64,000 nt of DNA from an uncultured Candidatus Saccharibacteria bacterium (GTDB taxonomy: Bacteria > Patescibacteriota > Minisyncoccia > Phycocordibacterales > UBA9973), in assembly GCA_964505155.1 (NCBI GenBank), contig CAZDGL010000001.1, positions 1,286 to 65,285 of the forward strand, in the 5' to 3' direction. The notes under the pieces are model-generated. The model saw only the letters and a program-made list of their open reading frames with translations. It was not told the DNA's origin and did not search any database. The translations under genes and the position numbers were made by a program. Position 1 is the first letter of the stretch; each line of letters begins with the position of its first letter. Positions 4,272-62,617 of this stretch are shown piece by piece.

Positions 4272-4772
4272 TCACACTAAAGAGTGGTCTGGACAGCAGG
4301 GATCGAACCTGCGATCTGAAGTTTCCAAAACTCCCGGATTACCCCTTTCCCATGCCCAGATATATTCATCTATAATAGGTTGAATTTCTTGTTTATATCG
4401 ACTGTGAACATATTGATGATGTGTTGGACACAATGGCACTAAGTTTTCTGGTCGATTGTCACTATGGTCTTCGTTAACGTGATGTGCGGCAACGATCTTT
4501 TCTTCACCGCATATCAAACACTTTTTTCCATGATAAAAGAAACATGTTGATTGATAACTATCTTGCTTCCAATTACCATGTTTGTCTCCTGTTCGAAAAT
4601 ATGTATTTGAACAAGAATAACTACAAGTTACTGATTCACTTGTAAATTCTTTTGAACAAACAGGACATTTTTTAATTCCTTGACATGCTAACAAATGTCT
4701 GTTTAAAGAATTATTAGCAACTAATTTTCTACATTTCTGGCATTCTATTTTTGGATATTTTCTTGGTGACAT
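4272..4772 (-). CDS. HNH endonuclease (putative homing endonuclease) with N-terminal Cys-rich region
   Basis: HNH motif CLICGEEKIVAAHHVNEDHSDNRPENLVPLCPTHH; the C-terminal 29 codons read through tRNA-Pro; a CATAAATA motif plus an SD-containing hairpin lie upstream (4775..4798). Confidence 0.7.
   Translation of the reverse strand: MSPRKYPKIECQKCRKLVANNSLNRHLLACQGIKKCPVCSKEFTSESVTCSYSCSNTYFRTGDKHGNWKQDSYQSTCFFYHGKKCLICGEEKIVAAHHVNEDHSDNRPENLVPLCPTHHQYVHSRYKQEIQPIIDEYIWAWERGNPGVLETSDRRFDPCCPDHSLV
4285..4359 (-). tRNA. tRNA-Pro (anticodon UGG)
   Basis: Manual cloverleaf: acceptor CTGGGCA/TGTCCAG (one G.U), anticodon stem GGAGT/ACTTC, loop TTTGGAA, T-arm GCAGG-TTCGATC-CCTGC, CCA encoded. Confidence 0.7.
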
Positions 4773-5140
4773 TTAGATCCTCTTCGGATCTATTTATGTT
4801 ACCAGTTTGAAATATACTCCAAATCAGGTAGGGACGGCCAGACTCCCCTACACACAGTTATTCTAAAAGCAATATGGAGGTTTTTATGATGGGATAACCT
4901 CCAACCCCAATATATCCAATTTTATTCCAATCTAATCAACAAAGCCTCTCAGTCTTAGCTGAGATTGGATAGGCTATTGTAGCCATTTACGCGCTTCGCG
5001 TTGCGATCTACATGATAGTCTCCATATCTTGATCAAAACCCCCATCCTCTAGTCCGCGTGGGGAGTCGCTTTGGATATGATTATATTTAGCTCCCTTTAG
5101 AGGAGAATGCAAGGGATTTTTTCGATCCCTTGCAGATTTT

Positions 5141-5716: not shown

Positions 5717-6122
5717 TTAGTTCTCCATTGAATGTCATAACTTGTTTGAGTTTTTGTTCTCGCTTCGCTTCAGAACCAAGCATCCACGGTTCTATCTGCA
5801 TGGTGCGGAACCATTTTTCCATGGAAGGGATCTCTCCCATGTCTTCCATTACGTGCTGTTCACCCACATCACGTACGGAAACCTTCTTCCCATCGGAATT
5901 GGTGATTACCGTACCGAACACTCGTTCGGCAACAAAGATGCCGAATGCCGAATGAAGGATTGCTCGATGTCGAACGTCGGCAATCACCTGTTTGGTAGAA
6001 TCGAAGAAATCATGAATAGGAAGATAATCTTCAGGGATTCCACCAAATCGTTTTGCTGAACTGCGTGCATGAATGTATGGTTTAATTGTCGTATCTCCTA
6101 TATAATAAGAAAGGGAAACCAC
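5709..6122 (-). CDS. hypothetical protein
   Basis: 137 aa ORF. Confidence 0.4.
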   Translation of the reverse strand: MVSLSYYIGDTTIKPYIHARSSAKRFGGIPEDYLPIHDFFDSTKQVIADVRHRAILHSAFGIFVAERVFGTVITNSDGKKVSVRDVGEQHVMEDMGEIPSMEKWFRTMQIEPWMLGSEAKREQKLKQVMTFNGELND

Positions 6123-6703
6123 TAATGTTTTATACAGTATATAAGATCACCAATAGAGTCAATCAAAAAACATACATAGGAATGCACAAAACTAGTATCA
6201 TCAACGATGATTACATGGGTTCTGGTGAACTTATAAAAAACGCTATTAAGAAATATGGTATAGACAATTTTATCAAAGATGTTCTTTTCATTTATGATAA
6301 TAAAGAAGACATGAAAAATAAAGAAATTGAACTGGTAAACGATGAATACTTAAATAGTGGAATGACTTACAACCTATGTTATGGTGGTCATGGTGGTTCT
6401 AGAAGAAAAGGTGTTATTTTAACTGAAGAGTTAAAAACTAAGATTTCAAAATCCGTAAAGATAGCTATGAACAACCCTACATTAAAAGCTCATCTTTCTA
6501 AAAAAAGACTGGGAAAGAAAGCCAGTATGAAAACTCGACAAAAATCATCTAAGAGTCACAAAACTCTTAGATGGATCTCTGATATTGAAAATCAAAAATC
6601 CATCTTTGTTCATTTTCACGAAGCAGAAAAATTAATCTCTACTGGAAAGTGGATTCAAGGAAGAAAATATGGATTTGATCCAAGACATGGAAAGGATTCA
6701 TGA
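6086..6703 (+). CDS. GIY-YIG homing endonuclease (Seg-like) with NUMOD3 repeats
   Basis: N-terminus MFYTVYKITNRVNQKTYIGMHKT...YMGSG (GIY-YIG); C-terminal NUMOD3-like repeats TEELKTKISKSVK / HLSKKRLGKKASMK. Confidence 0.75.
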   Translation: MSYLLYNKKGKPLMFYTVYKITNRVNQKTYIGMHKTSIINDDYMGSGELIKNAIKKYGIDNFIKDVLFIYDNKEDMKNKEIELVNDEYLNSGMTYNLCYGGHGGSRRKGVILTEELKTKISKSVKIAMNNPTLKAHLSKKRLGKKASMKTRQKSSKSHKTLRWISDIENQKSIFVHFHEAEKLISTGKWIQGRKYGFDPRHGKDS

Positions 6704-6717
6704 TCCGTACTTTCCCA

Positions 6718-6951
6718 TCACATAAAAGAAGCCAACGAAGGCAACACAGCAGCAAAAGAATTCATTTCGTTCTCATTATCAAACTGATAGAGGATCTCTC
6801 GTTGAAAGTTCTCAATACCATGTTTAGCAATAGCACGTTGAAGATGTTTTCCTGAACCCAAGTATCCGTCGTCTAGAATTTCAGTCTGGTGCTTTCCTCG
6901 ATAAACTTTCCTATCTATTAAGTTAGTGGTCTGGTATACAATGTAATGCAT
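6718..6951 (-). pseudogene. truncated GIY-YIG endonuclease (catalytic domain only, 77 aa)
   Basis: The first 60 aa match the 211 and 218 aa paralogs almost exactly (MHYIVYQTTNL...YLGSG...ENFQREILYQFDNE) and then diverge and stop; a convergent GIY-YIG gene lies immediately downstream. Confidence 0.6.
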
Positions 6952-6958
6952 TAAAAAG

Positions 6959-7003
6959 AAATCCCTAGAATCCGTTTACTATTATTTAGGATTCTAGGGA
7001 TTT
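6959..7003 (-). promoter_or_regulatory. 15-bp-stem hairpin with conserved loop CTAAATAATAGTAAAC (late-promoter-like) sequestering the SD
   Basis: aaatccctagaatcc / ggattctagggattt stems; the loop is identical to the 40081..40095 loop; the stem sequence covaries with the paralogous hairpins. Confidence 0.6.
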
Positions 7004-7008
7004 CAATG

Positions 7009-7093
7009 CGGAAGGTTAGGGAGTCGAACCCTAGCTACCTTGCGGTAGGCTTCAGCTTTCCAAGCTGGCACATTACCACTCTGTCAACCTTCC
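7009..7093 (-). tRNA. tRNA-Ser (anticodon GGA), type II
   Basis: Acceptor GGAAGGT/ACCTTCC, 3-bp D-stem, anticodon loop TTGGAAA, long variable arm CTACC-GCAA-GGTAG, T-loop TTCGACT; 27:43 C.A mismatch. Confidence 0.6.
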
Positions 7094-7186: not shown

Positions 7187-7197
7187 AGTGAAGATAT

Positions 7198-7599
7198 TTA
7201 TGCTCCTTCAGCAACCAACAGCGAAGTTTCTGGATTCAGAATCATTCGGGAAAGCTGAACCACAGTAGTCTGACTCTCAGTTGCGAATCCATAGAGTGCA
7301 AGAACTTCCATGAGTGCGGTTGCGAAAGCCTCCGTCGTGGCATCAAAGGCATCGGTGACCAGCTTCGAATCCGGATCCGAATTGCGGATTTCGTCACCAT
7401 CGTAATCCAGCGTCGACAGCTTGTTGAAGACGATAGCATTGCGGATCTGAGTATTCAGATCGCTATCTGGATTGATAATATCCAGAAGGAAGTTGGTATA
7501 AATTCGATCCAGTAGGATGTTCGCACCCTTCTTCACAGTTTCGTGCTGCTCAACCGGAAGGTTTTCGGTCAGTGCTGCAATCAAAGTTTCACGGCTCAT
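7198..7599 (-). CDS. hypothetical protein
   Basis: 133 aa ORF. Confidence 0.4.
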   Translation of the reverse strand: MSRETLIAALTENLPVEQHETVKKGANILLDRIYTNFLLDIINPDSDLNTQIRNAIVFNKLSTLDYDGDEIRNSDPDSKLVTDAFDATTEAFATALMEVLALYGFATESQTTVVQLSRMILNPETSLLVAEGA

Positions 7600-8867: not shown

Positions 8868-9214
8868 AAATTTAAGTGATCGGTAACCCCAATAAATTCA
8901 TCCCGATAATCTGGACCGATTGCTGCGCAGGTTAGAGTCGGTACACCATCGAATACGGTTCGACCTTCGTCCACAATAATAGCGGTAATCAATCCACGGT
9001 ACTTTGCTACATCAACAACCTGAAGCAACTCTTCCTCAGATTTGACTTCCAACACTACCTTAGTGAAGGAATCATTATAAAGCCACTCTAAAACGCGAGT
9101 ATCATCCATATTTTCGACGGTTGCCTTCAGTGAAGCATGTGCTCCCTGAGAAACCATCTTTCCTGCTCCCATACCAATATCAGTACGCATCAGGATAATC
9201 TGCTTTAGGTCCAT
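8858..9214 (-). CDS. peptidyl-tRNA hydrolase, PTH2 family
   Basis: IILMRTDIGMGAGKMVSQGAHASLKA matches the PTH2 signature (R.DL.MGKGK..AQ..HA); ATG at 9212..9214 with a GGAAGG SD; the track uses an upstream TTG. Confidence 0.75.
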   Translation of the reverse strand: MDLKQIILMRTDIGMGAGKMVSQGAHASLKATVENMDDTRVLEWLYNDSFTKVVLEVKSEEELLQVVDVAKYRGLITAIIVDEGRTVFDGVPTLTCAAIGPDYRDEFIGVTDHLNLLS

Positions 9215-9231
9215 GACCAACCTTCCAAAAA

Positions 9232-9305
9232 TGGTACCCAGTGAGGGAATCGAACCCCCGATGTCGCGGTGTAAACGCGATGCTTTCCCATTTAGCTAAC
9301 CGGGC
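9232..9305 (-). tRNA. tRNA-Val (anticodon UAC)
   Basis: Acceptor GCCCGGT/ACTGGGT (two G.U), anticodon stem TCGCG/CGCGA, loop TTTACAC, T-arm GGGGG-TTCGATT-CCCTC, CCA encoded. Confidence 0.65.
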
Positions 9306-9444
9306 ATAATAAAATCCGCTGCAGTGAAATAAGGCCGGTGCTTATTCCATACTATAACGAGTATGTCTGTTTAGCGACCGTGTCAAGGCATCGTTATATA
9401 CCAAGGATCCAAACGGCACAGAACTACAACTATCTGGTGGAGCT

Positions 9445-10080
9445 TCATCCCTTTCGGAACGAAACCCCTAACTTTCGACCTTTATACCATCCTTCTGGTA
9501 TCTGGTCAAGCTTTTTTATCTTACGATTCTCTGTTCCATTAGTGATCCACATAGATCCGAACTGAGAATTTTTCTCACCTTGTTGGTGAAGGGAATTAGC
9601 TTCACCTATTTTACGCTTATGATCATCTGAAAGATGTGACCCTGTAGAATCATATCCTAAATTTTTTTTAGCCCTATCAGCTAAAGCTTGTCTATGTGCA
9701 GAATTTGATTGTACTTTTAGTTTTGTGGCAATAATACTCTTGGCACGTTCTTCTTCAGTAAATCCAAATCTACGAGGTGTTAAATTATTTTGGTTGATAT
9801 ACCCAAATCCACCTTTACCACCGGGACAAATATTATAAGTGTTTGATAAATTACAAAAATCTTCAGTTACCAATTCAGCTTCCTTAGAGATCATATCGGC
9901 TTCATTATCGAATTGGTAGAGAATCTCTCGCTGGAAGTTCTCAATACCATATTTTTTAATAGCACGTCTGATCTGATTCCCAGACCCTAAGTACCTATCA
10001 TTCAGATCAGAAGTCTGATGCTTACCACGATAGATTTTACCATTAATCAGGTTTGTAGTCTGGTAGACGATATAATGCAT
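9445..10080 (-). CDS. GIY-YIG homing endonuclease (Seg-like), paralog family member
   Basis: MHYIVYQTTNLINGKIYRGKHQT...YLGSG motif; 211 aa; about 70% identical at the N-terminus to 39404..40060 and 6718..6951. Confidence 0.8.
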   Translation of the reverse strand: MHYIVYQTTNLINGKIYRGKHQTSDLNDRYLGSGNQIRRAIKKYGIENFQREILYQFDNEADMISKEAELVTEDFCNLSNTYNICPGGKGGFGYINQNNLTPRRFGFTEEERAKSIIATKLKVQSNSAHRQALADRAKKNLGYDSTGSHLSDDHKRKIGEANSLHQQGEKNSQFGSMWITNGTENRKIKKLDQIPEGWYKGRKLGVSFRKG

Positions 10081-10085
10081 AAAAG

Positions 10086-10132
10086 GGAAACTCCAGAACG
10101 CTTTTGCTATTATTTAGCGTTCTGGAGTTTCC
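10086..10132 (-). promoter_or_regulatory. 16-bp-stem hairpin with CTAAATAATAGCAAAA loop upstream of the GIY-YIG gene
   Basis: ggaaactccagaacgc / gcgttctggagtttcc; loop TTTTGCTATTATTTA; the SD lies in the 3' stem half. Confidence 0.6.
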
Positions 10133-10136
10133 GAAG

Positions 10137-10208
10137 TGGACTGATGGGGGATCGAACCCCAACTACCGCATTGCAAGTGCAGTGTGCTCCCATTATCACT
10201 ATCAGCCC
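10137..10208 (-). tRNA. tRNA-Ala (anticodon UGC)
   Basis: Acceptor GGGCTGA/TCAGTCC (G3.U70), anticodon stem CTGCA/TGCGG, loop CTTGCAA, T-arm TGGGG-TTCGATC-CCCCA; CCA not encoded. Confidence 0.7.
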
Positions 10209-10223
10209 AATAACTAACGAATT

Positions 10224-10297
10224 TGGTACCTGAGCCGCGAATCGAACGCGAGTGGACGGTTCCACAGACCGTCGCTTTACCACTAAGCTACTCAGGC
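10224..10297 (-). tRNA. tRNA-His (anticodon GUG), alphaproteobacterial type (no G-1, G1:U72, A73)
   Basis: Acceptor GCCTGAG/CTCAGGT with G1.U72, discriminator A, position -1 is U; anticodon stem ACGGT/ACCGT, loop CTGTGGA; T-arm TCGCG-TTCGATT-CGCGG; CCA encoded. Confidence 0.7.
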
Positions 10298-10327
10298 ATA
10301 ATCTCTATTACTTATATATGACACTTT

Positions 10328-10582
10328 TCACTCAGTGTCAACGGAAATCTTTTCGAGTGTGGATTTTCTTTTCACTTTGAAGAGTGGGGTAAGTTTGTAG
10401 ACGTAAACCTCATCCTCTTCAAGAAAATCGTCAAGATCGATATTGACGGGATCCTTCACGTCAAAAACGTACATATCCATATTTGATCCATCAGATCCAT
10501 CCAGATCAACCAGAGGATCGATGCCGGTCATTACCACATAGAAATCCTTGATTGAAGGACTTGGTTTCTTCTTAGCTGCCAT
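10328..10582 (-). CDS. hypothetical acidic protein
   Basis: Internal start MAAKKKPSPS with an AAGGA SD; the track's upstream start would lie inside the terminator hairpin. Confidence 0.4.
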   Translation of the reverse strand: MAAKKKPSPSIKDFYVVMTGIDPLVDLDGSDGSNMDMYVFDVKDPVNIDLDDFLEEDEVYVYKLTPLFKVKRKSTLEKISVDTE

Positions 10583-10593
10583 TTCTTTTTCCT

Positions 10594-10625
10594 TTGAAAA
10601 ATGGAGGAGCATTGTCTGCTCCTCC
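10594..10625 (-). terminator. rho-independent terminator (minus strand)
   Basis: GGAGGAGCA-gacaa-TGCTCCTCC followed by ATTTTTC, directly after the SPFH gene stop. Confidence 0.6.
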
Positions 10626-10642
10626 ATGTTTATAGTTTTATC

Positions 10643-11533
10643 TCACTGAGGAGTAGGTGTCAGATTCAGAAATGGTACTGCTGAACCCGGAATCATTTGT
10701 GCAGGAAGCTTTCCGTCCCACCGCTCAGCTTGCGTGAGTCGGATTAGATCCGGACTCTGCTTGAGAGCATCACCCTTGGCACGAATAGCATCAGCGTCTG
10801 CTTCACCTCGGATCCGAACAGCTTCTGCTGAGGCTTTGGCTTCAGCTAGTTGTGAGTCAGCACGTGCGTTTGCTTGCGTCACGGCAATCTCAGCATTGAT
10901 CTTTTCACGTTCGGCATTCTGACGGATCTTCTGAACTTCAACCTCGGCCATCATTCGGGCTTCGATAGACTGCTCATACTCGTCAGAAAAGTCGATATTC
11001 TCAATCTGAACCGAGATAATACTAACTGGACCTTCAACTGCAGCAATGATTGCTTGTTCAATATCAGTATTCAACTTAGCTCGATCCTGAACAATCGTTA
11101 CCGCATTATATCGACCGAACACGTTCTTGGTCTCTTCGTAAACCTTTGGATCAACCAAACGAAGGATCATATTGGATTCAGACCCATACTGTCGATAAAC
11201 CTCGTCTACAAAATCCGGTGCGATAACATAGTTCAATGAAAGTCGGACAGTTGCAGTCTGCTGGTCCTTAGAATATGCTGCAAGTCCACCAGTATACGTT
11301 CCGTCAGAATTCTGTGTTGCGTATGTTCGCACATTATCCCGAACCGAGATATCAACCACGTCATCTAGGAATGGAAGCTTGAATCCCAACCCCGGATTTG
11401 CTACACCCTGAAAAGCACCATTTCGAAGAATAACACCTCGATCACCCTCGTTTACTGTATAGAAACTTCCAAAAAACGTTGAAAGTCCTACGAGAGCAAC
11501 AATAAGAGCTAGTACACCTATTACATATTTCAC
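10643..11533 (-). CDS. SPFH / band-7 (HflK/C, prohibitin-like) membrane protein
   Basis: N-terminal TM then YTVNEGDRGVILRNGAFQGVANPGLGFKLPF...VRDNVRTYATQ (SPFH core) and an Ala/Glu-rich coiled-coil C-terminus; GTG start overlaps the upstream micro-ORF stop. Confidence 0.75.
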   Translation of the reverse strand: MKYVIGVLALIVALVGLSTFFGSFYTVNEGDRGVILRNGAFQGVANPGLGFKLPFLDDVVDISVRDNVRTYATQNSDGTYTGGLAAYSKDQQTATVRLSLNYVIAPDFVDEVYRQYGSESNMILRLVDPKVYEETKNVFGRYNAVTIVQDRAKLNTDIEQAIIAAVEGPVSIISVQIENIDFSDEYEQSIEARMMAEVEVQKIRQNAEREKINAEIAVTQANARADSQLAEAKASAEAVRIRGEADADAIRAKGDALKQSPDLIRLTQAERWDGKLPAQMIPGSAVPFLNLTPTPQ

Positions 11534-11646
11534 TTAGTTTCTCCTTTAGAAGTCTTGAAACGAATATTATCAATACACCACCATATTCCCATCCACAAGA
11601 CGAATGCGATTACGATGATGCCTACTGCTAGAAATAGCTTAGTCAT
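11530..11646 (-). CDS. small membrane protein (38 aa), translationally coupled
   Basis: MTKLFLAVGIIVIAFVLWMGIWWCIDNIRFKTSKGETK; ATGA and GTGA overlaps with the neighbouring genes. Confidence 0.3.
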   Translation of the reverse strand: MTKLFLAVGIIVIAFVLWMGIWWCIDNIRFKTSKGETK

Positions 11647-11725
11647 CTTTTGCGTCCCTTCCACACTGAAGAATAATCCAAATCATTGTTCCAATCAAAG
11701 CCACTGAGGCAAGAAAATAAAGCAT
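11639..11725 (-). CDS. small membrane protein (28 aa), translationally coupled
   Basis: MLYFLASVALIGTMIWIILQCGRDAKDD; its start overlaps the phosphatase stop (TAATG). Confidence 0.3.
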   Translation of the reverse strand: MLYFLASVALIGTMIWIILQCGRDAKDD

Positions 11726-12444
11726 TATGCCATCCACTCCGCATTTGTTTTAAATTTATCCATGAAGTTAAACTTCGAATCAATCTGTACAGTATTGTAC
11801 ATCATCAACTCAAACTCTTCATCTATCACAAGTGCGGACAATAGTCCACCGAAAACGCATGACGTATCGAGATTGATACGATTCTTTCTCCATGTGATAT
11901 CATCCTGTGGAGTATGTCCATGAACAACCTTTTTATCAAATGGATGAGTGTAGTCTAAAAACTTATCGCGGATCCAAAGTGAATCATTCCAGTTCTGGTC
12001 ATTCAGGGAATACGAAGGATTGACTCCAGCATGAACGAAGAAGTGCTTTCTGGTTTCATAATACTGACGAGTATTAGTCAGAAACTTCCAATGTCCTGCA
12101 GGAAGATAATCATACCCTATTGTGGTATAATCAAACCCATAAGACTTGTAGCACTCGGGATAATACTGATAATGACCAATAGATCCTTCGCGCATGGCTT
12201 CCATAAACATATCTTCGTGATTACCACGTAGGAAAACGCATTCTTGACGCATACCATACGCAATAAGTTTATCGATCACTCCCTTGGAATCAGGACCACG
12301 ATCAATGTAATCACCCAAAAAGATGCGGACGTGTTCTGGAAATTGCTTATCCAGAGCATCCAGCATTTCGTTCAGTTCGTTCAGACATCCGTGAATGTCT
12401 CCGATAGCGATATATTTACTCACTAGATTTCTCCGCACATGCAA
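11725..12444 (-). CDS. Ser/Thr protein phosphatase, PPP / metallophosphoesterase family (lambda-PPase-like)
   Basis: GDIHGC, GDYIDRGPDS and GNHE motifs in order. Confidence 0.85.
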   Translation of the reverse strand: MHVRRNLVSKYIAIGDIHGCLNELNEMLDALDKQFPEHVRIFLGDYIDRGPDSKGVIDKLIAYGMRQECVFLRGNHEDMFMEAMREGSIGHYQYYPECYKSYGFDYTTIGYDYLPAGHWKFLTNTRQYYETRKHFFVHAGVNPSYSLNDQNWNDSLWIRDKFLDYTHPFDKKVVHGHTPQDDITWRKNRINLDTSCVFGGLLSALVIDEEFELMMYNTVQIDSKFNFMDKFKTNAEWMA

Positions 12445-12486
12445 AAATATTAAAAAGATAAATAGCTCTATAAGGAGCTATCAAAA

Positions 12487-13131
12487 ATGTACTGTACATA
12501 TCTTACCATTTATTCAGGAAACTTATTGCCACCATTTTATATCGGGTATACTTCTATTTCAAGAATAGAATCTGGGTATAACGGAACAGTAACTTCACAA
12601 CGTTACGGAACAATATGGAAATCAGAACGAAAAGTCAATAAACATCTGTTCAAAACCATCATATTAAAACAATTCCATAACAGAAAAGAAGCATTATTAG
12701 CAGAATGTCAATTACATGAAAAATTAAAAGTTGATAAAAATCCTTTATATATCAACCAATCTTGTCAAAAATCAGACGGATTTACTTGTATAGGACACTC
12801 AAAGGAATCACGTAAAAGAATGTCAGAAACCAGAAAAGGTCGTAAAGGTCCAAATCTCGGTCGAGTATTAACTGAAGAATGGAAAGAAAATATCTCCAAA
12901 GGAAATAAAGGAAAACCAAAATCTGAAACTACAAAGAAAAAAATGTCGGAATCATTTAAAACTAGAAGATGGTGGACTAACGGTATTATTGATAAATTTA
13001 CGTCAGAATACCTCGGTGAAGGATGGAGACGTGGCATGAGAAAAAATCCTAATAGAAAAGGATTTCTTCCCGGTAATCAATATCGATTCAATCCAAAAAA
13101 CCATGATATTCCTGCCAAGCATGATAACTGA
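12487..13131 (+). CDS. GIY-YIG homing endonuclease (Seg-like) with NUMOD3 repeats
   Basis: YCTYLTIYSGNLLPPFYIGYT...; repeats SKESRKRMSETRKGRKG / TEEWKENISKGNKGK; preceded by GATAAATAG plus an SD-containing hairpin. Confidence 0.7.
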   Translation: MYCTYLTIYSGNLLPPFYIGYTSISRIESGYNGTVTSQRYGTIWKSERKVNKHLFKTIILKQFHNRKEALLAECQLHEKLKVDKNPLYINQSCQKSDGFTCIGHSKESRKRMSETRKGRKGPNLGRVLTEEWKENISKGNKGKPKSETTKKKMSESFKTRRWWTNGIIDKFTSEYLGEGWRRGMRKNPNRKGFLPGNQYRFNPKNHDIPAKHDN

Positions 13132-30035: not shown

Positions 30036-30478
30036 TCACACTCCCATATTGCACTGCACAATAGTATTTAGCACATCGTGCAGTCAAAAAGGTATGCTAA
30101 ATCAGCATACCACCTATTAGTTAAAACCAGTTATTGTTGAGGATGGTGACAGCGAGCTTCTCGATACCGGAAGCAATGAGAACCGCAGAGACAAAAAGTA
30201 CGGTTAGTGTAGCAGGTAAGAATGCATACCAGTTTCCATTAAACTGAGTCTTATTCGGCATCCACAGGTTCCTTCTTGTTGTTCTTCAGACGACGCTGAA
30301 TTTCATACTCAGCTGCAGCAGAAGAAAGGGATCCGGACTTGGAAATTTCCACCAACTCGTCGGTGGACTTGGACTTCATAGATTCAGTACGCTTTTTATT
30401 GATAGCCAATTCACTTCTCCATATTGAAAGGTAAACCGTAGGATTAGCCTACGTGGTTTCTGGTGTCAAGCTCTTTTT

Positions 30479-31263: not shown

Positions 31264-31342
31264 TTTGTGATTTCTTTCCCACTGTGTACTTGCTGATTAA
31301 AATCTGCATTCTTATAAATAAAAAAGAAAGGGATATAAGGAT

Positions 31343-32074
31343 ATGCAGCAATATACACCATACACTTATTTATTAGGATGGTCAACTCCTAAAATATATT
31401 ATTATGGTGTTCGATACTCAAAAAAGAGTAAATGTTTATATTTATCAGGATGTCATCCTGATGATTTATGGAATACTTATTTTACTTCTTCTGAATATGT
31501 AAAAAATACGTATTTATTATACGGAAATCCTGATATAATTCAGATTAGAAAAACTTTCAATACTGCAAAAGAAGCTTTAAATTGGGAAAAGAAAGTTTTA
31601 ACTAGAATGAAATTACATCAGCGACCCGATTTTTTGAATAAATGTGCTGGTGGTAGTATTTTTAATGATGAAGATGTTAGAAGAAAAGTGTCGTTAGCTC
31701 TTAAAGGAAAACCATTTTCTCAAGAACATAAAGATAACATTCGAAAATCAAAACAAAACATTTCTCCTGAAATTCGTGCTAATATGAGCCGAGGACAAAG
31801 ATCCAAATCACCTCCAACAATAGAAACAAGAATAAAAAGATCTAAAAGTATGAAAAAACTTCATTGGTATAATAATGGCAATGAAAGTAAGAGATTACTC
31901 GTATGTCCTGAAGGATGGACCCAAGGTCGACTTACTTTCACTAAAACCACTACTTATATCAAATGTTCAAACTGTGAAAGAAATATATCTAAGTCAAATT
32001 TTCGGAAACATTCGACTTTTTGCCTACGGTATACTTTGACACCAGAAGATAGTCCTTCTTCTCGGAAGCCTTGA
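31343..32074 (+). CDS. GIY-YIG homing endonuclease (Seg-like) with NUMOD3 repeats
   Basis: ...KIYYYGVRYSKKS...; repeats SQEHKDNIRKSKQ / SPEIRANMSRGQRSKS; an exact TATAAATA lies 23 nt upstream (31313..31320). Confidence 0.65.
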   Translation: MQQYTPYTYLLGWSTPKIYYYGVRYSKKSKCLYLSGCHPDDLWNTYFTSSEYVKNTYLLYGNPDIIQIRKTFNTAKEALNWEKKVLTRMKLHQRPDFLNKCAGGSIFNDEDVRRKVSLALKGKPFSQEHKDNIRKSKQNISPEIRANMSRGQRSKSPPTIETRIKRSKSMKKLHWYNNGNESKRLLVCPEGWTQGRLTFTKTTTYIKCSNCERNISKSNFRKHSTFCLRYTLTPEDSPSSRKP

Positions 32075-33567: not shown

Positions 33568-33780
33568 TCAATCAACAATTTCCCAATCGTCTGAAAGTAT
33601 ATCAGCTTGATTAGCTAACCAACCCGGTTGATATTTACCTTGAGCAGTAAACATTACTATATAAGGTTCGTACTTTTCGTACTCAGTTTCTAAATATAGA
33701 TACATGTTTTTGCCGTTCCATCCAGAACGTCTAACAAAATTTCCATTTTTTAGTTCTTCAATTGCTTGTCCAAAATTCAT
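33568..33780 (-). CDS. hypothetical protein
   Basis: 70 aa; its ATG overlaps the HNH stop (ATGA). Confidence 0.35.
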   Translation of the reverse strand: MNFGQAIEELKNGNFVRRSGWNGKNMYLYLETEYEKYEPYIVMFTAQGKYQPGWLANQADILSDDWEIVD

Positions 33781-34349
33781 TTAAACTCCAACTCTGCCAT
33801 CAATTCGGTTAGACATGCAGCATCAACATGTCCATATTTAATTCTGTTTTCTTTCCACTCTAACATTTGTAAATTATCCTTACTAGCAAGTATTTCAGGT
33901 TGAATAGAATTATTCCATCCATATATAATAGAGATTTTATGATCTAATTGATATCCACCTTCTACACCAGATAATGTTCTAGGATAATTATTAGGATTAA
34001 TTTCATTCATATGTTTAATATATGTTCGTTCTGTCAACACTCTTACTTTTGATAGATAGCTTTTAAATTTACGATTTCTTCTATCTGGATTATAAGATGG
34101 ATGGTTTGAGCCACTTCTATTTTTACCATACCAAGGATTATTTTCACCTTTCCATCTATCTGAAGATATATAATTACCTTGTCGTTTTTGTCCAGTTTGA
34201 GATTTCTGGTATTTTGCTATACTATCATGAGAATCTGCAGTTAATCCTTTATTCCAAGGAGATTTTCCAGTATTATCTGGAAGTATACCTCTAGCAACTC
34301 TTTTTTTAGCAGATTCCGACATTTTGCGTCGGGTTTCGTCTGAAATCAT
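33777..34349 (-). CDS. HNH-family homing endonuclease with N-terminal NUMOD3 repeat; the last 14 codons duplicate the gp44 C-terminus
   Basis: SDETRRKMSESAKKR (NUMOD3); C-terminal LDHKISIIYGWNN...NLQML (HNH-like); ends ...AACLTELMAELEFK, as does gp44. Confidence 0.7.
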   Translation of the reverse strand: MISDETRRKMSESAKKRVARGILPDNTGKSPWNKGLTADSHDSIAKYQKSQTGQKRQGNYISSDRWKGENNPWYGKNRSGSNHPSYNPDRRNRKFKSYLSKVRVLTERTYIKHMNEINPNNYPRTLSGVEGGYQLDHKISIIYGWNNSIQPEILASKDNLQMLEWKENRIKYGHVDAACLTELMAELEFK

Positions 34350-34356
34350 TTAATTT

Positions 34357-34409
34357 CCCTATTCGTCGCAGATTATTGCAGTTATTTATGTTATCTGCGA
34401 CGAATAGGG
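34357..34409 (-). promoter_or_regulatory. 17-bp perfect hairpin with a CATAAATAA-containing loop, sequestering the HNH gene SD
   Basis: ccctattcgtcgcagat / atctgcgacgaataggg; the loop contains (minus strand) CATAAATAACTG; the 3' stem ends in AGGGA 7 nt before the ATG. Confidence 0.6.
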
Positions 34410-34416
34410 AAATATT

Positions 34417-35352
34417 TTATTTAAATTCTAACTCTGCCATTAATTCCGTGAGGCAAGCTGCTAGGCAAAGTTCTTGATCAGCTACAAAAGCTGCCTTATA
34501 CTGATATTCGTTCAGGGTTATGATTGCCTGTGGTTGTGATTCAGGAACAACAAAATCACCAAGTGCATCAGTCAATCCACGGATGATATGAACTGAATCC
34601 CCATCAGAATTATCAGTCACCCACTTACGCATCACCTTGAAATCCTTGGCCTTCAAAGCAGCTAGAAGTTCAGGAAACTGTCGGATGTTCGGAATTGCCG
34701 CAATAGCGCGAGCATCAATAGGTCCAAACTTGGAGATCTTTTCAAGTTCACCAAGGATCCGTCGATAGTCCGGAAAGAACTTCATGATGAACTGGACGAC
34801 GGCTTTTTGTTCGTACTGAACGTCATTGTCCTCAAGAATGACTTTGATGCGTTCCATGAACGCTGCTGCCATAGCAGGCTTTTCCTCCTTGCGCAGATTG
34901 AAATCCACGTTCGGACATCTGGAATGGATAGCCTCAATCAACTTGGCTTTGTAGTTGCAAGTCAGAATGAAGGATACGTTCGATGAAAATTCTTCAATCG
35001 AACCACGAAGTGCTCCTTGAGCATCCGCTGTCAGACCATCAGCTTCATCGATTATCAGAACCTTCTTGCCACCGTCAAGAGAAATCGTGGAGGCATAGTT
35101 TCGCATCTTGGTTCGGATCGTATCAATGCCTCTTTCTTCTGAAGAATTGATCTTCATATAGGAAGCACCAATTTCCTTACATAGAGCCTCAGCTACGGTT
35201 GTCTTTCCAATGCCCGGTCCACCGAAGAATAGCAGATTAGGAAGGTTGCCTTCTTTGACGTAACCCTCGAATACTTTCTTGAGTCTATCAGGAATGATGC
35301 AATCATTGATAGTTTGAGGTCTGTATGCCTCTACCCATAAATTTTCTGCCAT
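34417..35352 (-). CDS. 44: clamp-loader large subunit gp44 (AAA+ ATPase)
   Basis: Walker A GGPGIGKTT, Walker B LIIDEAD, RFC-like layout, 311 aa. Confidence 0.9.
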   Translation of the reverse strand: MAENLWVEAYRPQTINDCIIPDRLKKVFEGYVKEGNLPNLLFFGGPGIGKTTVAEALCKEIGASYMKINSSEERGIDTIRTKMRNYASTISLDGGKKVLIIDEADGLTADAQGALRGSIEEFSSNVSFILTCNYKAKLIEAIHSRCPNVDFNLRKEEKPAMAAAFMERIKVILEDNDVQYEQKAVVQFIMKFFPDYRRILGELEKISKFGPIDARAIAAIPNIRQFPELLAALKAKDFKVMRKWVTDNSDGDSVHIIRGLTDALGDFVVPESQPQAIITLNEYQYKAAFVADQELCLAACLTELMAELEFK

Positions 35353-35644: not shown

Positions 35645-36307
35645 TTAATCCTTAGCTTTGGACCGAGCAATAACATAGGAGAGACGTCCATCGGACGATA
35701 CGAACTTTCCGGTTCTCTCATGGATTGACACCGTATAGGCATCTGGGATAAAGCGCATCAGATCGAGCTTGAACGATGCATTGAAATCCTCACCCTCGAA
35801 CTTCTCAGGGAGCGTGAATTCCATTTGATTGGAAGTCTCGTCCTTCGGATCTACACCACGAATGGAGAGTACTTCATCAGATCCTGATATTACCACATCC
35901 TTGAGATTAGTCAAAGCGCAAAGTGATAGGATCTTATTGAAATCGTCCTTCTTTAGAACAAATTCCGTGATGGGTTCAGTGATCTTGATATTCTTATCCT
36001 TAGGAATAGATACCACCAGATCCGGTGCCGCAGCACGATAGACCACCTTGAAGCCACCAGAAGAAATGGTAGCAGCATCCTCATCAAATTCCACATTCAC
36101 GTCCTTGAATTCGGATACGCAACTCAAGAATGTTCCCAGATCATAGATAGCAAAATCTAGAGGGAAATCTTCGTCTAGTTCAACCATGGCAAACGATGAC
36201 TTTTGCTCATCACAGGTTCGCTGGTTCTTTCCCGGTTGAAGCACGATACCCGGATTCAACTGAGTAAAGTTCTTCAGAATTTTAATAGTACGTTCAGATA
36301 GCTTCAT
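35645..36307 (-). CDS. 45: sliding clamp gp45
   Basis: MKLSERTIKILKNF...FAIYDLGTFL collinear with T4 gp45 (MKLSKDTTALLKNF...AIYDLNGFL). Confidence 0.9.
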   Translation of the reverse strand: MKLSERTIKILKNFTQLNPGIVLQPGKNQRTCDEQKSSFAMVELDEDFPLDFAIYDLGTFLSCVSEFKDVNVEFDEDAATISSGGFKVVYRAAAPDLVVSIPKDKNIKITEPITEFVLKKDDFNKILSLCALTNLKDVVISGSDEVLSIRGVDPKDETSNQMEFTLPEKFEGEDFNASFKLDLMRFIPDAYTVSIHERTGKFVSSDGRLSYVIARSKAKD

Positions 36308-39326: not shown

Positions 39327-39330
39327 GAAA

Positions 39331-39356
39331 AGGAGCCGAAAGGCTCCTTAATTCTT
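39331..39356 (+). terminator. rho-independent terminator (GNRA tetraloop hairpin)
   Basis: AGGAGCC-GAAA-GGCTCCT then TAATTCTT; near-identical to the hairpin at 40726. Confidence 0.6.
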
Positions 39357-39403
39357 GGTGCGGACTAGCGGTAACGATCCGCTTTCTACTCGTTGGCAAC
39401 GAG

Positions 39404-40060
39404 TCATAATTCCTTTATACGAAGCCCGCTAAATTTTCGACCTTTATACCAACCTTCTGGTATCTGGTCAAGTTTATTTATCTTTCGGTTCCTAGTTCCA
39501 TCAGTTATCCACATAGTTCCGAAAGCAGGATTTTTCTGACCGTTTCTATCAACTTTTTGTTGAGCCTCAGATATTTTTCGTTTAATCTCGTCAGATTGAG
39601 TTTTACCTAGTTGAGAATAAACAAAATTTGATGACGGTATATGTTTGATACCTTTTTCTTTTTTTGCTAAGGCACCTTTAATTCCAAGTTCTCTTAGTTT
39701 TTCTTTTGAAAATTTACCTATAGAACTGTCATATCCTTTACGAACATATTCGTTTTTCAAATTTGACGAATTGATGTATTTAAACCCTCCACCGAACCCA
39801 CCTACACAAATATTGTAGGTGTTTGATAGTCCACACCAATCTTCATCTACTAATTCAGCTTCTTTGAGAAGCATATCTTGTTCGGTATCAAAACGATATA
39901 AGATCTCTTTATTAAAATTTTCACGTCCGTATTTCTTTACGGCATGCTTCAAATGAGTACCAGATCCAAGATATCCATCGTCTAAATTCTTAGTTTGATG
40001 GATGCCTCGATATACTTTATCGTTTAAGAGATTGGTAGTTTGGTAGACGATGTAGTGCAT
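39404..40060 (-). CDS. GIY-YIG homing endonuclease (Seg-like), paralog family member
   Basis: MHYIVYQTTNLLNDKVYRGIHQT...YLGSG; 218 aa. Confidence 0.8.
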   Translation of the reverse strand: MHYIVYQTTNLLNDKVYRGIHQTKNLDDGYLGSGTHLKHAVKKYGRENFNKEILYRFDTEQDMLLKEAELVDEDWCGLSNTYNICVGGFGGGFKYINSSNLKNEYVRKGYDSSIGKFSKEKLRELGIKGALAKKEKGIKHIPSSNFVYSQLGKTQSDEIKRKISEAQQKVDRNGQKNPAFGTMWITDGTRNRKINKLDQIPEGWYKGRKFSGLRIKEL

Positions 40061-40065
40061 TTAAG

Positions 40066-40110
40066 GGAGTCCTGATTACCGTTTACTATTATTTAGGTAA
40101 TCAGGACTCC
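40066..40110 (-). promoter_or_regulatory. 15-bp-stem hairpin with conserved CTAAATAATAGTAAAC loop upstream of the GIY-YIG gene
   Basis: ggagtcctgattacc / ggtaatcaggactcc; the SD AGGA lies in the 3' stem 10 nt from the ATG. Confidence 0.6.
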
Positions 40111-40115
40111 AAGGG

Positions 40116-40190
40116 AGCGTCCAGTCGGATTCGAACCGACACTTACTGGTTGGAAGCCAGTCGTGCTTAGCCGTTAAACACTATAGAAGC
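40116..40190 (-). tRNA. tRNA-Gly (anticodon UCC)
   Basis: Anticodon stem ACTGG/CCAGT, loop CTTCCAA, T-arm GTCGG-TTCGAAT-CCGAC, discriminator U; acceptor with one U.C mismatch; CCA not encoded. Confidence 0.65.
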
Positions 40191-40277
40191 ATATGGCCGC
40201 TGTGCTGCATTACACCATAGGGCATCAGGAAAATTGGCTGCCCCACCCAGAATTGAACTAGATCCTGCGACAAGGAT

Positions 40278-40307
40278 ATTTATATGCATTTTATCACGTG
40301 GTGTCAA
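40278..40307 (-). promoter_or_regulatory. sigma70-type promoter TTGACA-N17-TATAAAT (minus strand) upstream of tRNA-Gly
   Basis: Minus-strand TTGACAccacgtgataaaatgcaTATAAAT; transcription would run through a roughly 90 nt structured leader into tRNA-Gly. Confidence 0.55.
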
Positions 40308-40750: not shown

Positions 40751-40935
40751 TTTGCATACTCAATCAAGAACTGAGTAGGATTGAGTCCTGCATTTCTGAG
40801 ATAGGATTCCGCATCCTGAGGGTTTCGGAATTCCAGAAGCTTGGTTGCTCCAGACTCAGTATACTCCGACATGCTCTGGAGATATTGTCTTCCTTCAATA
40901 CTGAAAATTACGTACATTAGCGTTTCCTTATTCAA
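40747..40935 (-). CDS. hypothetical protein
   Basis: 62 aa ORF. Confidence 0.3.
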   Translation of the reverse strand: MNKETLMYVIFSIEGRQYLQSMSEYTESGATKLLEFRNPQDAESYLRNAGLNPTQFLIEYAK

Positions 40936-41701
40936 AGTCTAGCTGCTCAACGAGTCGCTCGTTAGCCTTGGTGAAGTATTCAGGATCTGCCTCGATACAA
41001 ACCCATTTGCGGTTCGTCTGTCGGGCAGCTACTGCCGTTGTTCCGGCTCCTGCAGTATTATCTAGGATAACTTCACCTTCGTTGCTGTAGGTTCGAATGA
41101 GATACGCGAACAAATCTACTGGCTTCTGAGTAGGATGAAACCCACTCGAATTAGAATCGAAGCGCAGGATTGAATCGGGATAGCCTTCGTATTCTGGTGT
41201 ATAATCCCTATGCGATGGTCTGGTGCCGATATGGCCACCATACTTGCGGGTTCCGTCCTGAACCTTAGGTCGCAATATTTTCTTCAACCCTTGAGGATTA
41301 TATGTCATTCTGGACGATGTCAAGTGCTCATGATTGGTCGTTGCCTTGGAAAATATGAGCACATTCTCATGTTTCTTCAGAGGCTTATTCTTTGCATGAA
41401 CAAATCCTGTGGGCTTGGTCTTCTCCCAGATCAATTCGTATTTGAAGTATTCAATCTGGGAAACGATGCACGCTGTGGTGAATGGTTGAGACGCAGTCAT
41501 AACCACCGTTCCCGTAGGCTTCAGGAGCCTCCAGTATTCATCCCATAGCTGATTAAATGGAAGAACCGAATCCCATCCACATTCCGTGGTTCCGTATGGC
41601 AAATCGACCAGCACCATATCAATCGAACCGGATGCTAGCTGTGGCATCACGTCGAAGCAATCACCCTGATAGAAAGTGCCATCGGGATATTCCTGTTTCA
41701 T
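40928..41701 (-). CDS. DNA methyltransferase, beta-class amino-MTase (CcrM/HinfI-like N6-adenine type)
   Basis: Motif IV VDLPYGTT precedes motif I DNTAGAGTTAVAA; paralog of 43946..44692; ATGA overlap with the gene 46 stop. Confidence 0.75.
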   Translation of the reverse strand: MKQEYPDGTFYQGDCFDVMPQLASGSIDMVLVDLPYGTTECGWDSVLPFNQLWDEYWRLLKPTGTVVMTASQPFTTACIVSQIEYFKYELIWEKTKPTGFVHAKNKPLKKHENVLIFSKATTNHEHLTSSRMTYNPQGLKKILRPKVQDGTRKYGGHIGTRPSHRDYTPEYEGYPDSILRFDSNSSGFHPTQKPVDLFAYLIRTYSNEGEVILDNTAGAGTTAVAARQTNRKWVCIEADPEYFTKANERLVEQLDFE

Positions 41702-43867: not shown

Positions 43868-43945
43868 TCAATACTCCTAGTGGAAATGTTTCTAAGAGTA
43901 TTTAGTTTTTCCATTCTTCCAGCGTACAGTCTTTATTTTCAACAA

Positions 43946-46333: not shown

Positions 46334-46969
46334 TCATTCGAATTCTTGCTCAAAGAATTCAGCTTCGTTACCAAATCCTGAATCATCACTGGGATCAACA
46401 TCTCTTGGTTCTTCATTACTTACTCCAACTTCTTCCATCTTCAGTTTTTTCTTGGCCTTACGCTCAGTGCGTCTACGCTCCATTTTCTTCTCAAACTTGT
46501 GGATGAATTCATTCAGGTTATCATAAGTCCCATCTTGATTCAAGGAAATGTTTTCCTCTTTTAGATGTTCTTCCAGATCCCAATTATCCACCACGTGATT
46601 GTGATAAGATTTGTACTTGATATAGGAAGTCTTTTCCTCCTCTTCAATTCTTCTCAGGAATGCGTACCACGAAATCGTGGTGAAGTATGCATGAGGGTTC
46701 TTATACTTTTCGATATCGAAATTATCGAAGTAGAGAATGCAGTTCTCGACCGCATCCGACTCCATTTCTTCCTTGAAAGAATAACCTATAAACTTACGAT
46801 TGTAGGTTAGACCCTTGGCAATCTTCAGGATGCATAGGCCACAGAAATCCGGTATTCGTGGTTTAGGATCGTCCTGATCCTCGGCTTCCCGAACCTTGGC
46901 CTTGTATTTCTTGATACTCTCTAGGAACTTTTCGTTATCAACGTAGTAGTTCTTTGGCAATTTTGACAT
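46334..46969 (-). CDS. 55: late-transcription sigma factor gp55
   Basis: KYKNPHAYFTTISWYAF collinear with T4 gp55 KYKNPHAYITQACFNAF. Confidence 0.8.
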   Translation of the reverse strand: MSKLPKNYYVDNEKFLESIKKYKAKVREAEDQDDPKPRIPDFCGLCILKIAKGLTYNRKFIGYSFKEEMESDAVENCILYFDNFDIEKYKNPHAYFTTISWYAFLRRIEEEEKTSYIKYKSYHNHVVDNWDLEEHLKEENISLNQDGTYDNLNEFIHKFEKKMERRRTERKAKKKLKMEEVGVSNEEPRDVDPSDDSGFGNEAEFFEQEFE

Positions 46970-50232: not shown

Positions 50233-50784
50233 TTATTTACAAAGATAAGATATTGCTCTCTTCAAGTATTCTACATTATCTTTAAAATGTCCTAATCCAT
50301 GATTACAATTCTGACATAATAATCCACGAAATCTACCCGTTTCATGACAATGATCAATTGATAATTCTTGTGATGATGGTGAATTACAATCACAAATCGA
50401 ACAAGTTTGTTGAACTTCTAATAAATGAAGAATATATTCTTCATTTTCAACTAATCCTAAAGATCTAATTTTTCGTTTTCTTAAAATAATTTTCTGTTTC
50501 TCTGGGTTATCTTGTTCCCATTTTCTTCTATGATATTCACGACGTTGTTTTTGTTCTTCAGTGGCATTAGCATTACGATATCGTTGGTTTGCAGCTTCAC
50601 ATTCACGACACGTGGATCTTGGTCGTGGAATTTTTCTAGTTCTAATTCTAAAATCATCAACAGGTTTTTTTGTCAAACATTTGACGCAAGTTTTTGTAGT
50701 TTCATTGTATCCGTAGTTACATGAACGACATTTTAGGGAGCGGGAATCTTTTAGGTTCCCACACCCACACAAATCTTTTGGCAT
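50233..50784 (-). CDS. HNH endonuclease
   Basis: IDHCHETGRFRGLLCQNCNHGLGH; CTAAATA at 50816..50822 plus a hairpin upstream. Confidence 0.75.
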   Translation of the reverse strand: MPKDLCGCGNLKDSRSLKCRSCNYGYNETTKTCVKCLTKKPVDDFRIRTRKIPRPRSTCRECEAANQRYRNANATEEQKQRREYHRRKWEQDNPEKQKIILRKRKIRSLGLVENEEYILHLLEVQQTCSICDCNSPSSQELSIDHCHETGRFRGLLCQNCNHGLGHFKDNVEYLKRAISYLCK

Positions 50785-50834
50785 TAATCCTCATAAGAGT
50801 GGGTTTCTTCACTCTTATTTAGTACATTGAGGAT

Positions 50835-51257
50835 CTATACCTTTTTAGCACACTCTGGTCCAATACCACTTGCGAGAGAGGTCGGTGTGGTAAGAAGTCT
50901 GTTGCACCGACCGCATTTACCGCTGTGGGAAATGTTGAGGTTCTCGCGAATCTTACCTTCCTTCAACCCATCCATCATGTAGTTGAAAGCGCGAACCGGG
51001 ATCGACTCCGCAGTCATTTTCGACTTCTTCGTCAGGACCAGAGTCTCGTTGGCACCCATGATCCCGATGTAGGTGTAGTCCGTCTCATTCGAGGGACCAG
51101 TCAGGACCGAGACGAAGGCAATATCCTTGTCCTTCGGACGCTTCACCCGGAAGGTGAAGTGCTTGGCAGTCTTGGTCGACTCCAGCGTGATCGTGGAATT
51201 CCCTGCGAGGAGGAAGGTCTTGGCATCAATCGCGTTGTCAAACATGGGTAGCTCCAT
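50835..51257 (-). CDS. hypothetical protein with C-terminal Zn-ribbon-like CxxC...CxxC
   Basis: 140 aa ORF. Confidence 0.35.
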   Translation of the reverse strand: MELPMFDNAIDAKTFLLAGNSTITLESTKTAKHFTFRVKRPKDKDIAFVSVLTGPSNETDYTYIGIMGANETLVLTKKSKMTAESIPVRAFNYMMDGLKEGKIRENLNISHSGKCGRCNRLLTTPTSLASGIGPECAKKV

Positions 51258-58037: not shown

Positions 58038-58088
58038 TATAGGTTTCTCCAATTTTTTAATTTCGTAGTTATTTAGTAATTTGTAGTT

Positions 58089-62542: not shown

Positions 62543-62617
62543 ATTGGATCTCCCTACGGATTCTTTCTTGTTGTTTTTAAGGAATTCGGTTTATTTATGT
62601 TTCTGTGAAAAATCCCA

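Follow-up and report, generated by a model that had tools for sequence, protein, structure and literature searches.

Hairpins that sequester the ribosome-binding site (RBS), in combination with a late promoter, have been published for I-TevI to I-TevIII, for segB and for mobE of phage Aeh1 (PMC2988022, in which the work of 1988 and that of Gibb and Edgell in 2007 and 2009 are also summarized). In the I-TevI-type systems and mobE, the RBS is masked in read-through RNA from early or middle transcription, and transcripts from a late (or middle) promoter in or near the hairpin are translatable. The T4 late genes e, soc, and 49 also carry RBS-sequestering hairpins (PMC2988022), gene 49, which encodes endonuclease VII, being the classic case of such control. 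SegB, whose gene belongs to the T4 tRNA cluster, cuts the tRNA T-psi-C motif GGTTCRANTCC and drives preferential inheritance (PMC2330249). The segB hairpin was described by Brok-Volchanskaya et al. in 2008 (PMC2330249), and the segB late promoter was predicted by Edgell, Gibb, and Belfort in 2010 (Figs. 1 and 5 of PMC2988022). Finally, Dassa et al. (2009) found hairpins before 15 of 16 endonuclease ORFs at marine metagenomic "fractured gene" loci, ten of them with TATAAATA (PMC2677866).

Here, we analyzed a 64-kb window (the whole stretch of DNA under study) in which four long hairpins are probably translational gates of the T4 type on homing-endonuclease genes. The first-pass annotation had proposed for them the logic of the T4 intron ORFs, in which read-through RNA hides the RBS and loop-initiated RNA exposes it. 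This logic is supported by the predicted folds, by the enrichment of the motif, by the presence of gp55- and gp45-like proteins, and by SegB homology. Its extension to free-standing endonuclease genes probably applies in the window, but it is not new, since gating of this design has precedents in T4 segB and its relatives (PMC2330249, PMC2988022, PMC2677866).

In T4, segB follows tRNA-Ile, and in the 41-nt spacer between them AGAACATAAATA pairs with TATTTATGTTCT and an inner helix is added, giving a hairpin of -19.4 kcal/mol (z -6.7) whose 5' arm contains CATAAATA and whose 3' arm contains the ATG. The window shares with this system a homologous protein, a position directly after a tRNA gene, a stable hairpin that fills the spacer, CATAAATA or CTAAATA in the 5' arm or at the loop junction, and a translation initiation region in the 3' arm. 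The geometry differs: the T4 3' arm covers the AUG and the first codons, with the Shine-Dalgarno sequence (SD) in the inner helix and a stem of 12+6 bp, whereas the 3' arm of the window leaders ends 5-7 nt short of the AUG and includes the SD alone. Furthermore, the window leaders are perfect palindromes of 15-17 bp with an open loop of 13-15 nt, and three paralogous copies occur in one genome.

The Aeh1 gene mobE, a free-standing HNH gene, is reminiscent of the HNH-like gene starting at 34349 in the window. The I-TevI-type systems and mobE differ from ours in being backed by primer extension, reporter, and mutant data, whereas we infer gating in the window from sequence; moreover, their proteins are not homologous to those of the SegB-like genes. 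In addition, I-TevI represses its own expression through an operator that overlaps the promoter. Nothing alike was seen in the window, where, by eye, the loop shows no resemblance to a tRNA T-arm target of the kind that an I-TevI-style operator would have. The loci of Dassa et al. share with the window the free-standing endonuclease genes and the environmental T4-like or cyanophage-like origin that the window also appears to have, but they involve Vsr-like and other GIY-YIG families, lie inside split-intein genes, and show no tRNA association.

Gene content and the four long hairpins

Pfam and PHROGs gene content identifies the window as DNA of a distant T4-like phage. The Pfam matches include the Gp23 major capsid protein, a T4-type scaffold protein, a portal protein, and a family-B DNA polymerase, to which PHROGs adds tail tube, tail sheath, prohead protease, clamp loader, sliding clamp, a gp55-like late sigma factor, gp46/gp47-like nuclease subunits, and UvsY. 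The capsid protein (gp23) is at most ~63% identical to those of pelagiphages, Methylophilales phages, cyanophages, and Stenotrophomonas phage DLP_6. Megablast of positions 9000-12000 against the phage collection returned no near DNA match, and a look-up of the exact paralog A protein gave no contig. The minus strand carries nearly all long ORFs, replication and structural alike, and the window contains 12 tRNA genes. Endonuclease genes are very dense, with ~12 GIY-YIG, HNH, or endonuclease-VII-like ORFs per 64 kb. Two paralogous DNA methyltransferase ORFs (40928-41701 and 43946-44692) bracket the gp46-like gene and an endonuclease-VII-like ORF, and the gp47-like and gp46-like genes are split apart by this arrangement (40928-44692). 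A second tail-tube-like ORF (49448-49957) lies ~12 kb from the gp19-like gene, with GATAAATA 138 nt upstream.

Three minus-strand GIY-YIG paralogs (A to C; Table 1) are homologs of T4 SegB by BLASTP and alignment. With the Pfam SegE_GIY-YIG model, paralog A scores 25.9 bits (cut-off 25) and paralog C 21 bits, below the cut-off. A repeat search over the whole 64 kb ranks the hairpins upstream of these genes, together with that of the HNH-like gene at 34349, as the four longest perfect inverted repeats of the window (hairpins A to D; 15-21 bp). They are also the only perfect inverted repeats of at least 15 bp (n = 4), and each lies directly 5' of a homing-endonuclease ORF. The window has 26 perfect 12-mer inverted-repeat seeds, whereas Markov simulations (n = 100) yielded 0.3 on average. 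RNA folding of the four hairpins gave -26 to -34 kcal/mol and z = -6.8 to -8.3, none of 200 shuffles being as good. The long stems reported earlier before the GIY-YIG genes starting at 6951, 10080, and 40060 are thus statistical outliers by both repeat ranking and folding. Their pairing is perfect, as had been stated, but the lengths given (15-16 bp) need correction to 17 bp for hairpin A, 16 bp for B, and 15 bp for C; likewise, the HNH gene has the same design, but on a stem of 21 bp instead of 17 bp.

The SD lies in the 3' arm of all four hairpins, in agreement with the placement previously given for the three GIY-YIG genes. At these genes, the SD (GGAG, AGGGA, AGGA) is 9-10 nt upstream of the ATG, a long spacing, and the AUG with the preceding 5-7 nt stays outside the stem; in hairpin D, the 3' arm carries the SD AGGGA, 6 nt before the ATG at 34349. 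An Rfam scan of the window recovered tRNAs only, with no curated family at or above gathering score for the hairpins.

Table 1. Coordinates of the main features (positions in the window)
Feature	Position	Strand	Description
Hairpin A	10086..10132	-	17-bp perfect stem, arms 10116-10132 and 10086-10102, loop 13 nt; -29.9 kcal/mol, z -8.25; between tRNA-Ala and SegB-like ORF
CTAAATA of hairpin A	10111..10117	-	5'-arm/loop junction; putative late start ~10105
Shine-Dalgarno GGAG of hairpin A	10091..10094	-	3' arm, 10 nt before ATG 10080
SegB-like GIY-YIG gene, paralog A	9445..10080	-	211 aa; BLASTP to T4 SegB full length (residues 1-204), 39% identity, E 3e-45
tRNA-Ala(tgc)	10136..10208	-	3' end 3 nt before hairpin A
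Hairpin B	6958..7004	-	16-bp perfect stem, arms 6958-6973/6989-7004, loop 15 nt with CTAAATA 6989-6983; then TTTCTTTTTAA
Truncated SegB-like ORF, paralog B	6718..6951	-	77 aa; likely pseudogene
tRNA-Ser	7008-7093		Hairpin B starts 3 nt after
Hairpin C	40066..40110	-	15-bp perfect stem, arms 40066-40080/40096-40110, loop 15 nt with CTAAATA 40096-40090
SegB-like GIY-YIG gene, paralog C	39404..40060	-	218 aa
tRNA-Gly(tcc)	40114-40190		Hairpin C starts 3 nt after
Hairpin D	34353..34413	-	21-bp perfect stem, arms 34353-34373/34393-34413, loop 19 nt with CATAAATA 34390-34383
HNH-like/NUMOD3 endonuclease ORF	33777..34349	-	Inserted after clamp-loader gene 44
Composite hairpin	50780..50841	-	Before endonuclease-VII-like ORF 50233-50784; ACTAAATA 50823-50816 in internal loop
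ACTAAATA (43906-43899), then 11-bp hairpin	43868..43906	-	SD AGGAG in hairpin; before endonuclease-VII-like ORF 43397-43867
CATAAATA (4798-4791), then 7-bp hairpin (4774-4792)	4774..4798	-	Before HNH ORF 4272-4772; weak short version
GATAAATA (12457-12464), then 8-bp hairpin	12457..12482	+	SD AGGAG in hairpin; before GIY-YIG-like ORF 12487-13131
TATAAATA, without hairpin	31313..31320	+	23 nt before GIY-YIG-like ORF 31343-32074
ACTAAATA before scaffold gene	58070..58077	-	Upstream of gp22-like 56754-58052
CATAAATA before tail-tube gene	62592..62599	-	50 nt upstream of gp19-like 61976-62542
gp55-like late sigma factor	46334..46969	-	phrog_234, E 4e-53; presumed reader of the motif
gp45-like sliding clamp	35645-36307		PHROGs match
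Endonuclease ORF starts	4772, 6125(+), 6951, 10080, 12487(+), 31343(+), 34349, 40060, 43867, 50784, 53895, 55298

Each GIY-YIG hairpin begins 3-4 nt past a tRNA 3' end, as might be expected of intrinsic terminators or 3'-processing signals of the upstream tRNA genes, beside which the endonuclease genes would lie only incidentally. The sequence after hairpin A is CTTTT and that after hairpin B is TTTCTTTTTAA, and a perfect hairpin B is kept on the truncated copy starting at 6951, which also counts against gating. However, the loops measure 13-19 nt, whereas the canonical terminators of this phage have loops of 3-5 nt and T-runs (e.g., 39349-39330 and 30111-30091), and a terminator scan called none of the four hairpins. 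A T-run is absent from hairpins C and D, a run of at least 5 T is present at hairpin B alone, and hairpin D follows a protein-coding gene and not a tRNA. Moreover, neither the conserved TAAATA loop nor the consistent SD in the 3' arm would be explained. From loop size, the scan, and the T-runs, we reject termination as a function common to the four hairpins, and we regard this reading as a whole, with tRNA processing included, as improbable.

Paralog B terminates 15 nt short of the stop codon of a plus-strand SegB-like gene (6125-6703) that converges on it and is 40% identical to paralog A. This plus-strand gene has no tRNA, hairpin, or TAAATA upstream. The 6086-6951 region looks like one in which an endonuclease gene was disrupted or replaced by another. 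The HNH-like ORF 33777-34349 finishes with AACLTELMAELEFK and the stop, and this C terminus is identical to the final 14 residues of the gene 44 ORF (34417-35352); therefore, this cassette sits within a duplication (~45 nt) of the 3' end of gene 44. In the second copy, the TAAATGA stop/start overlap with the next ORF (33568-33780) is preserved.

The last 26 nt of the SegB-like ORF 39404-40060 overlap tRNA-Gly(gcc) (39356-39429), and the HNH ORF 4272-4772 spans the entire tRNA-Pro (4285-4359); several SegB-like ORFs from IMG/VR likewise finish at the following tRNA or within it. From ORFs that run into tRNA genes, tRNA processing would strip the stop codon, and a second control proposed for T4 segB resembles such a removal (PMC2330249). 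The module at 39330-40190 comprises tRNA-Gly(tcc), a hairpin, the SegB-like gene, tRNA-Gly(gcc), and a terminator. It lies ~24 kb from the main tRNA cluster (4.2-15.5 kb) and may be an ectopic copy of the tRNA/endonuclease unit; SegB-driven amplification of tRNA regions is the subject of a 2026 paper (PMC13096335).

The loop motif and the proposed gating mechanism

The loop of each of the four longest hairpins contains (A/C)TAAATA. At the three GIY-YIG hairpins, conservation extends to a 16-mer, CTAAATAATAGYAAAM, present in exactly three copies in the window, all of them at these hairpins, against 0.2 expected, which confirms the conserved loop of the first-pass annotation. The loop positions 3' of TAAATA (ATAGYAAAM) are common to the paralogs and absent at the other TAAATA sites of the window. 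A scan of viral contigs with the 16-mer gave at least 120 loci, none with a flanking stem of at least 8 bp among the matches listed, and these listed matches are chance copies of an AT-rich word.

The minus (coding) strand of the window has 34 TAAATA sites and the plus strand has 8. Sixteen of these 42 sites fall at -60 to -8 from a same-strand start, in windows that make up 4% of positions. Hexamers of the same composition (A4T2) mostly have 0-13% of their sites there, the overlapping ATAAAT reaching 17%. The base before the hexamer makes a difference: 15 of 29 [AC]TAAATA sites fall within these same-strand windows, versus 0 of 13 [GT]TAAATA sites. The suggested late promoter core, (C/A)TAAATA, is thus enriched before start codons, and the motifs noted upstream of late genes 22 and 19 are in place as ACTAAATA and CATAAATA, respectively (Table 1). 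Of the T4 late transcription proteins gp55, gp45, and gp33, the 64 kb encode gp55- and gp45-like ones. CTAAATA late promoters are found in Aeh1, and the -13 position is poorly conserved in other T4-like phages (PMC1524935); NATAAATA is a published late-promoter variant of cyanophages (PMC2984593).

Further copies of the motif lie near tRNA genes and inside a gene. On the minus strand, CATAAATA is found at 7195-7202, 9 nt before tRNA-Ser (7186), and TATAAATA at 40277-40284, 87 nt before tRNA-Gly (40190), while three [AC]TAAATA sites run antisense (minus strand, 31367-31518) inside the plus-strand GIY-YIG-like gene 31343-32074. These tRNA-upstream and antisense motifs could serve downstream minus-strand genes. 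Promoters embedded in T4 seg and mob genes have been described (PMC2988022).

In T4 late promoters, the motif occupies -13 to -6 and transcription starts 6 nt past it (PMC1524935). Applied to hairpins A to D, this rule places +1 at the 3' end of the loop. We evaluated the consequences by SD-specific unpaired probabilities instead of the mean accessibility of positions -15 to +3. When all 80 genes were ranked by the latter, the SegB-like genes did not stand out, as their AUG and spacer lie beyond the stem. In the predicted folds of the read-through leaders of the genes starting at 10080, 6951, 40060, 34349, 50784, 53398, and 43867, the unpaired probability of the SD is at most 0.004, and it rises to 0.32-0.49 in predicted leaders starting 6 nt past the motif. 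For hairpin A, the predicted values are 0.000 in read-through RNA versus 0.40 in late RNA. Predicted leader folding energy goes from ~-38 kcal/mol (read-through) to ~-4 kcal/mol (late).

From these predictions and the gene order, we infer promoter activity, transcription start, read-through transcription, and the translational effect as follows. The terminator scan found no canonical terminator between the endonuclease ORFs and the co-oriented upstream tRNA genes or gene 44, and transcription of these tRNA or replication genes would run into the endonuclease ORFs. In such read-through RNA, the 5' arm would pair with the SD-bearing 3' arm and keep ribosomes off. Late in infection, gp55-RNA polymerase with the gp45 clamp would read the (A/C)TAAATA late-promoter core in the loop. 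Transcripts would then start ~6 nt past the motif, at the loop 3' end, and would lack the 5' arm. Such late RNA would have a free leader of 24-28 nt with the SD open, so that synthesis of the endonuclease would be confined to late infection.

In length, perfect stems of 15-21 bp fall within or close to the range of RNase III substrates, and the hairpins lie at tRNA/mRNA junctions that need processing anyway. They might thus be RNase III-type sites, at which cleavage splits the tRNA from the mRNA and activates or destroys the endonuclease message regardless of any loop promoter. We give this little credence, since relatives including T4 segB have shorter or interrupted stems and the invariant TAAATA would be left unexplained. 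RNase III processing and the gating proposed above could, nonetheless, coexist.

The design also appears in weaker versions. In the composite hairpin of the endonuclease-VII-like ORF starting at 50784, both the SD GAGGA and the AUG are paired. This ORF and the one starting at 43867 recall T4 gene 49, and the ORF starting at 53398, which does not encode an endonuclease, has the same motif-plus-hairpin layout, as in the case of e, soc, and 49. The first-pass annotation had extended the design to the genes starting at 4772 and 12487; motif and hairpin are indeed present there, but the motif lies 5' of a short hairpin of 7-8 bp and not in its loop. The exact motif that it reported before the GIY-YIG gene at 31343 was recovered as TATAAATA (Table 1). 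The endonuclease genes starting at 55298, 53895, and 6125 (+) show no motif-hairpin design. This absence weighs against gating, as do the long SD-AUG spacing and the AUG left outside the stem in the three SegB-like leaders. Finally, on the minus strand at 30040-30111, a hairpin whose loop contains CTAAATA (30072-30065) lies between the canonical terminator 30111-30091 and a 126-aa ORF. The SD of this gene is outside the stem and the fold is marginally better than shuffled sequence (z -2.1), which makes this hairpin, as modeled, a misfit to RBS sequestration.

Stem divergence in paralogs and relatives

The loop served as the anchor for comparing the paralog leaders; a MAFFT/RNAalifold alignment that combined the three with one further leader (L122) was discarded, as it mis-registered an arm of hairpin C and produced spurious broken pairs. 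Among the paralogs, 13-15 of 15 loop positions are conserved, versus 4-10 of 15-16 positions in the stem arms; third codon positions are 0.35-0.48 identical. The conserved loop and the divergent stems therefore indicate that sequence matters in the loop, whereas in the stem only pairing does. Contrary to what had been claimed, the stems are not "entirely different": those of the genes starting at 10080 and 6951 match at 10 of 16 positions, and all 6 differences are compensated.

A protein-guided scan of IMG/VR yielded 24 SegB-like loci. In all 20 of the 20 examined, a tRNA gene ends 20-83 nt before the ATG, and most leaders have an outer stem of 13-19 bp, TAAATA at the 5'-arm/loop junction, and the SD or the AUG in the 3' arm, the stems being all different. 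In a gap-poor covariation alignment of seven of these leaders, TAAATAG is invariant and 8 of 21 pairs show compensatory (both-side) change. In total, 93.9% of cells are paired, against at most 50% in slid-partner controls, and none of 500 shuffles equaled the observed values. In the relatives with an AUG-covering arm, there are 13 G·U cells against 2 A·C cells, as would be expected of pairing that matters at the level of the sense RNA. Among cultured phages, Rhizobium phage RHph_I1_18 and Klebsiella phage Nispero have a segB-like gene placed by tRNA genes, with variants of the hairpin design. Two relatives of the HNH-like gene (34349) carry CTAAATA and a hairpin of other geometry.

The leaders whose 3' arm ends before the AUG stand out in having no G·U among 130 stem pairs (counted over the stems 10086-10132, 6958-7004, 40066-40110, and 34353-34413 and four further loci, L121, L122, L134, and L135). 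Elsewhere, G·U makes up 14 of 142 pairs in the relatives with an AUG-covering arm and 9 of 84 in the tRNA acceptor stems of the window. Furthermore, these perfect Watson-Crick stems diverged about as fast as silent codon positions and without intermediates, which suggests that the two arms change in concert at the DNA level. Because the stems contain no G·U, upkeep at the DNA level is inseparable from selection at the RNA level. Hence, the compensated changes put forward earlier as proof of selection are real, but in stems that are perfect DNA palindromes they carry less RNA-level weight than was claimed; the other evidence stands.

One explanation, which we consider unlikely yet worth stating, is that the hairpin leader is a co-mobilized DNA module of the endonuclease cassette, whose arms evolve in concert by template switching ("quasipalindrome correction") and not by stepwise RNA-level compensation. 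If so, the palindrome might add a DNA-level role, such as a recombination hotspot at the cassette edge, beside translational gating. A stronger form of this idea would have the elements act, or be kept, mainly as DNA palindromes (as a cassette boundary or recombination hotspot, or through template switching between arms), with RNA folding as a by-product. The lack of G·U and the rapid divergence without intermediates would fit, as would the SbcCD-like gp46/gp47 and endonuclease-VII-like proteins that the phage encodes. However, the SD is always in the 3' arm, the promoter-like motif is always at the same sense-strand junction, the AUG-type relatives show the sense-strand G·U bias described above, and the homologous T4 segB hairpin has no known DNA-level function. 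Consequently, we judge the purely DNA-level form very unlikely.

Implications for the T4-like lineage

If the endonuclease genes are gated at translation, as we favor, a classic circuit of T4 would also operate in a T4-like lineage that is distant and looks uncultured. In this phage, since nearly all genes are on one strand, read-through into late-expressed genes should be common. Our understanding of how homing endonucleases are regulated is unchanged by the finding. What it brings is comparative support for the segB-type gate, in the form of three paralogs, ~20 metagenomic relatives, and compensatory stem changes, where the T4 segB circuit previously rested on one predicted hairpin and a predicted promoter. 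In addition, (A/C)TAAATA can be taken as a working late-promoter core for the lineage, as an aid to annotation.
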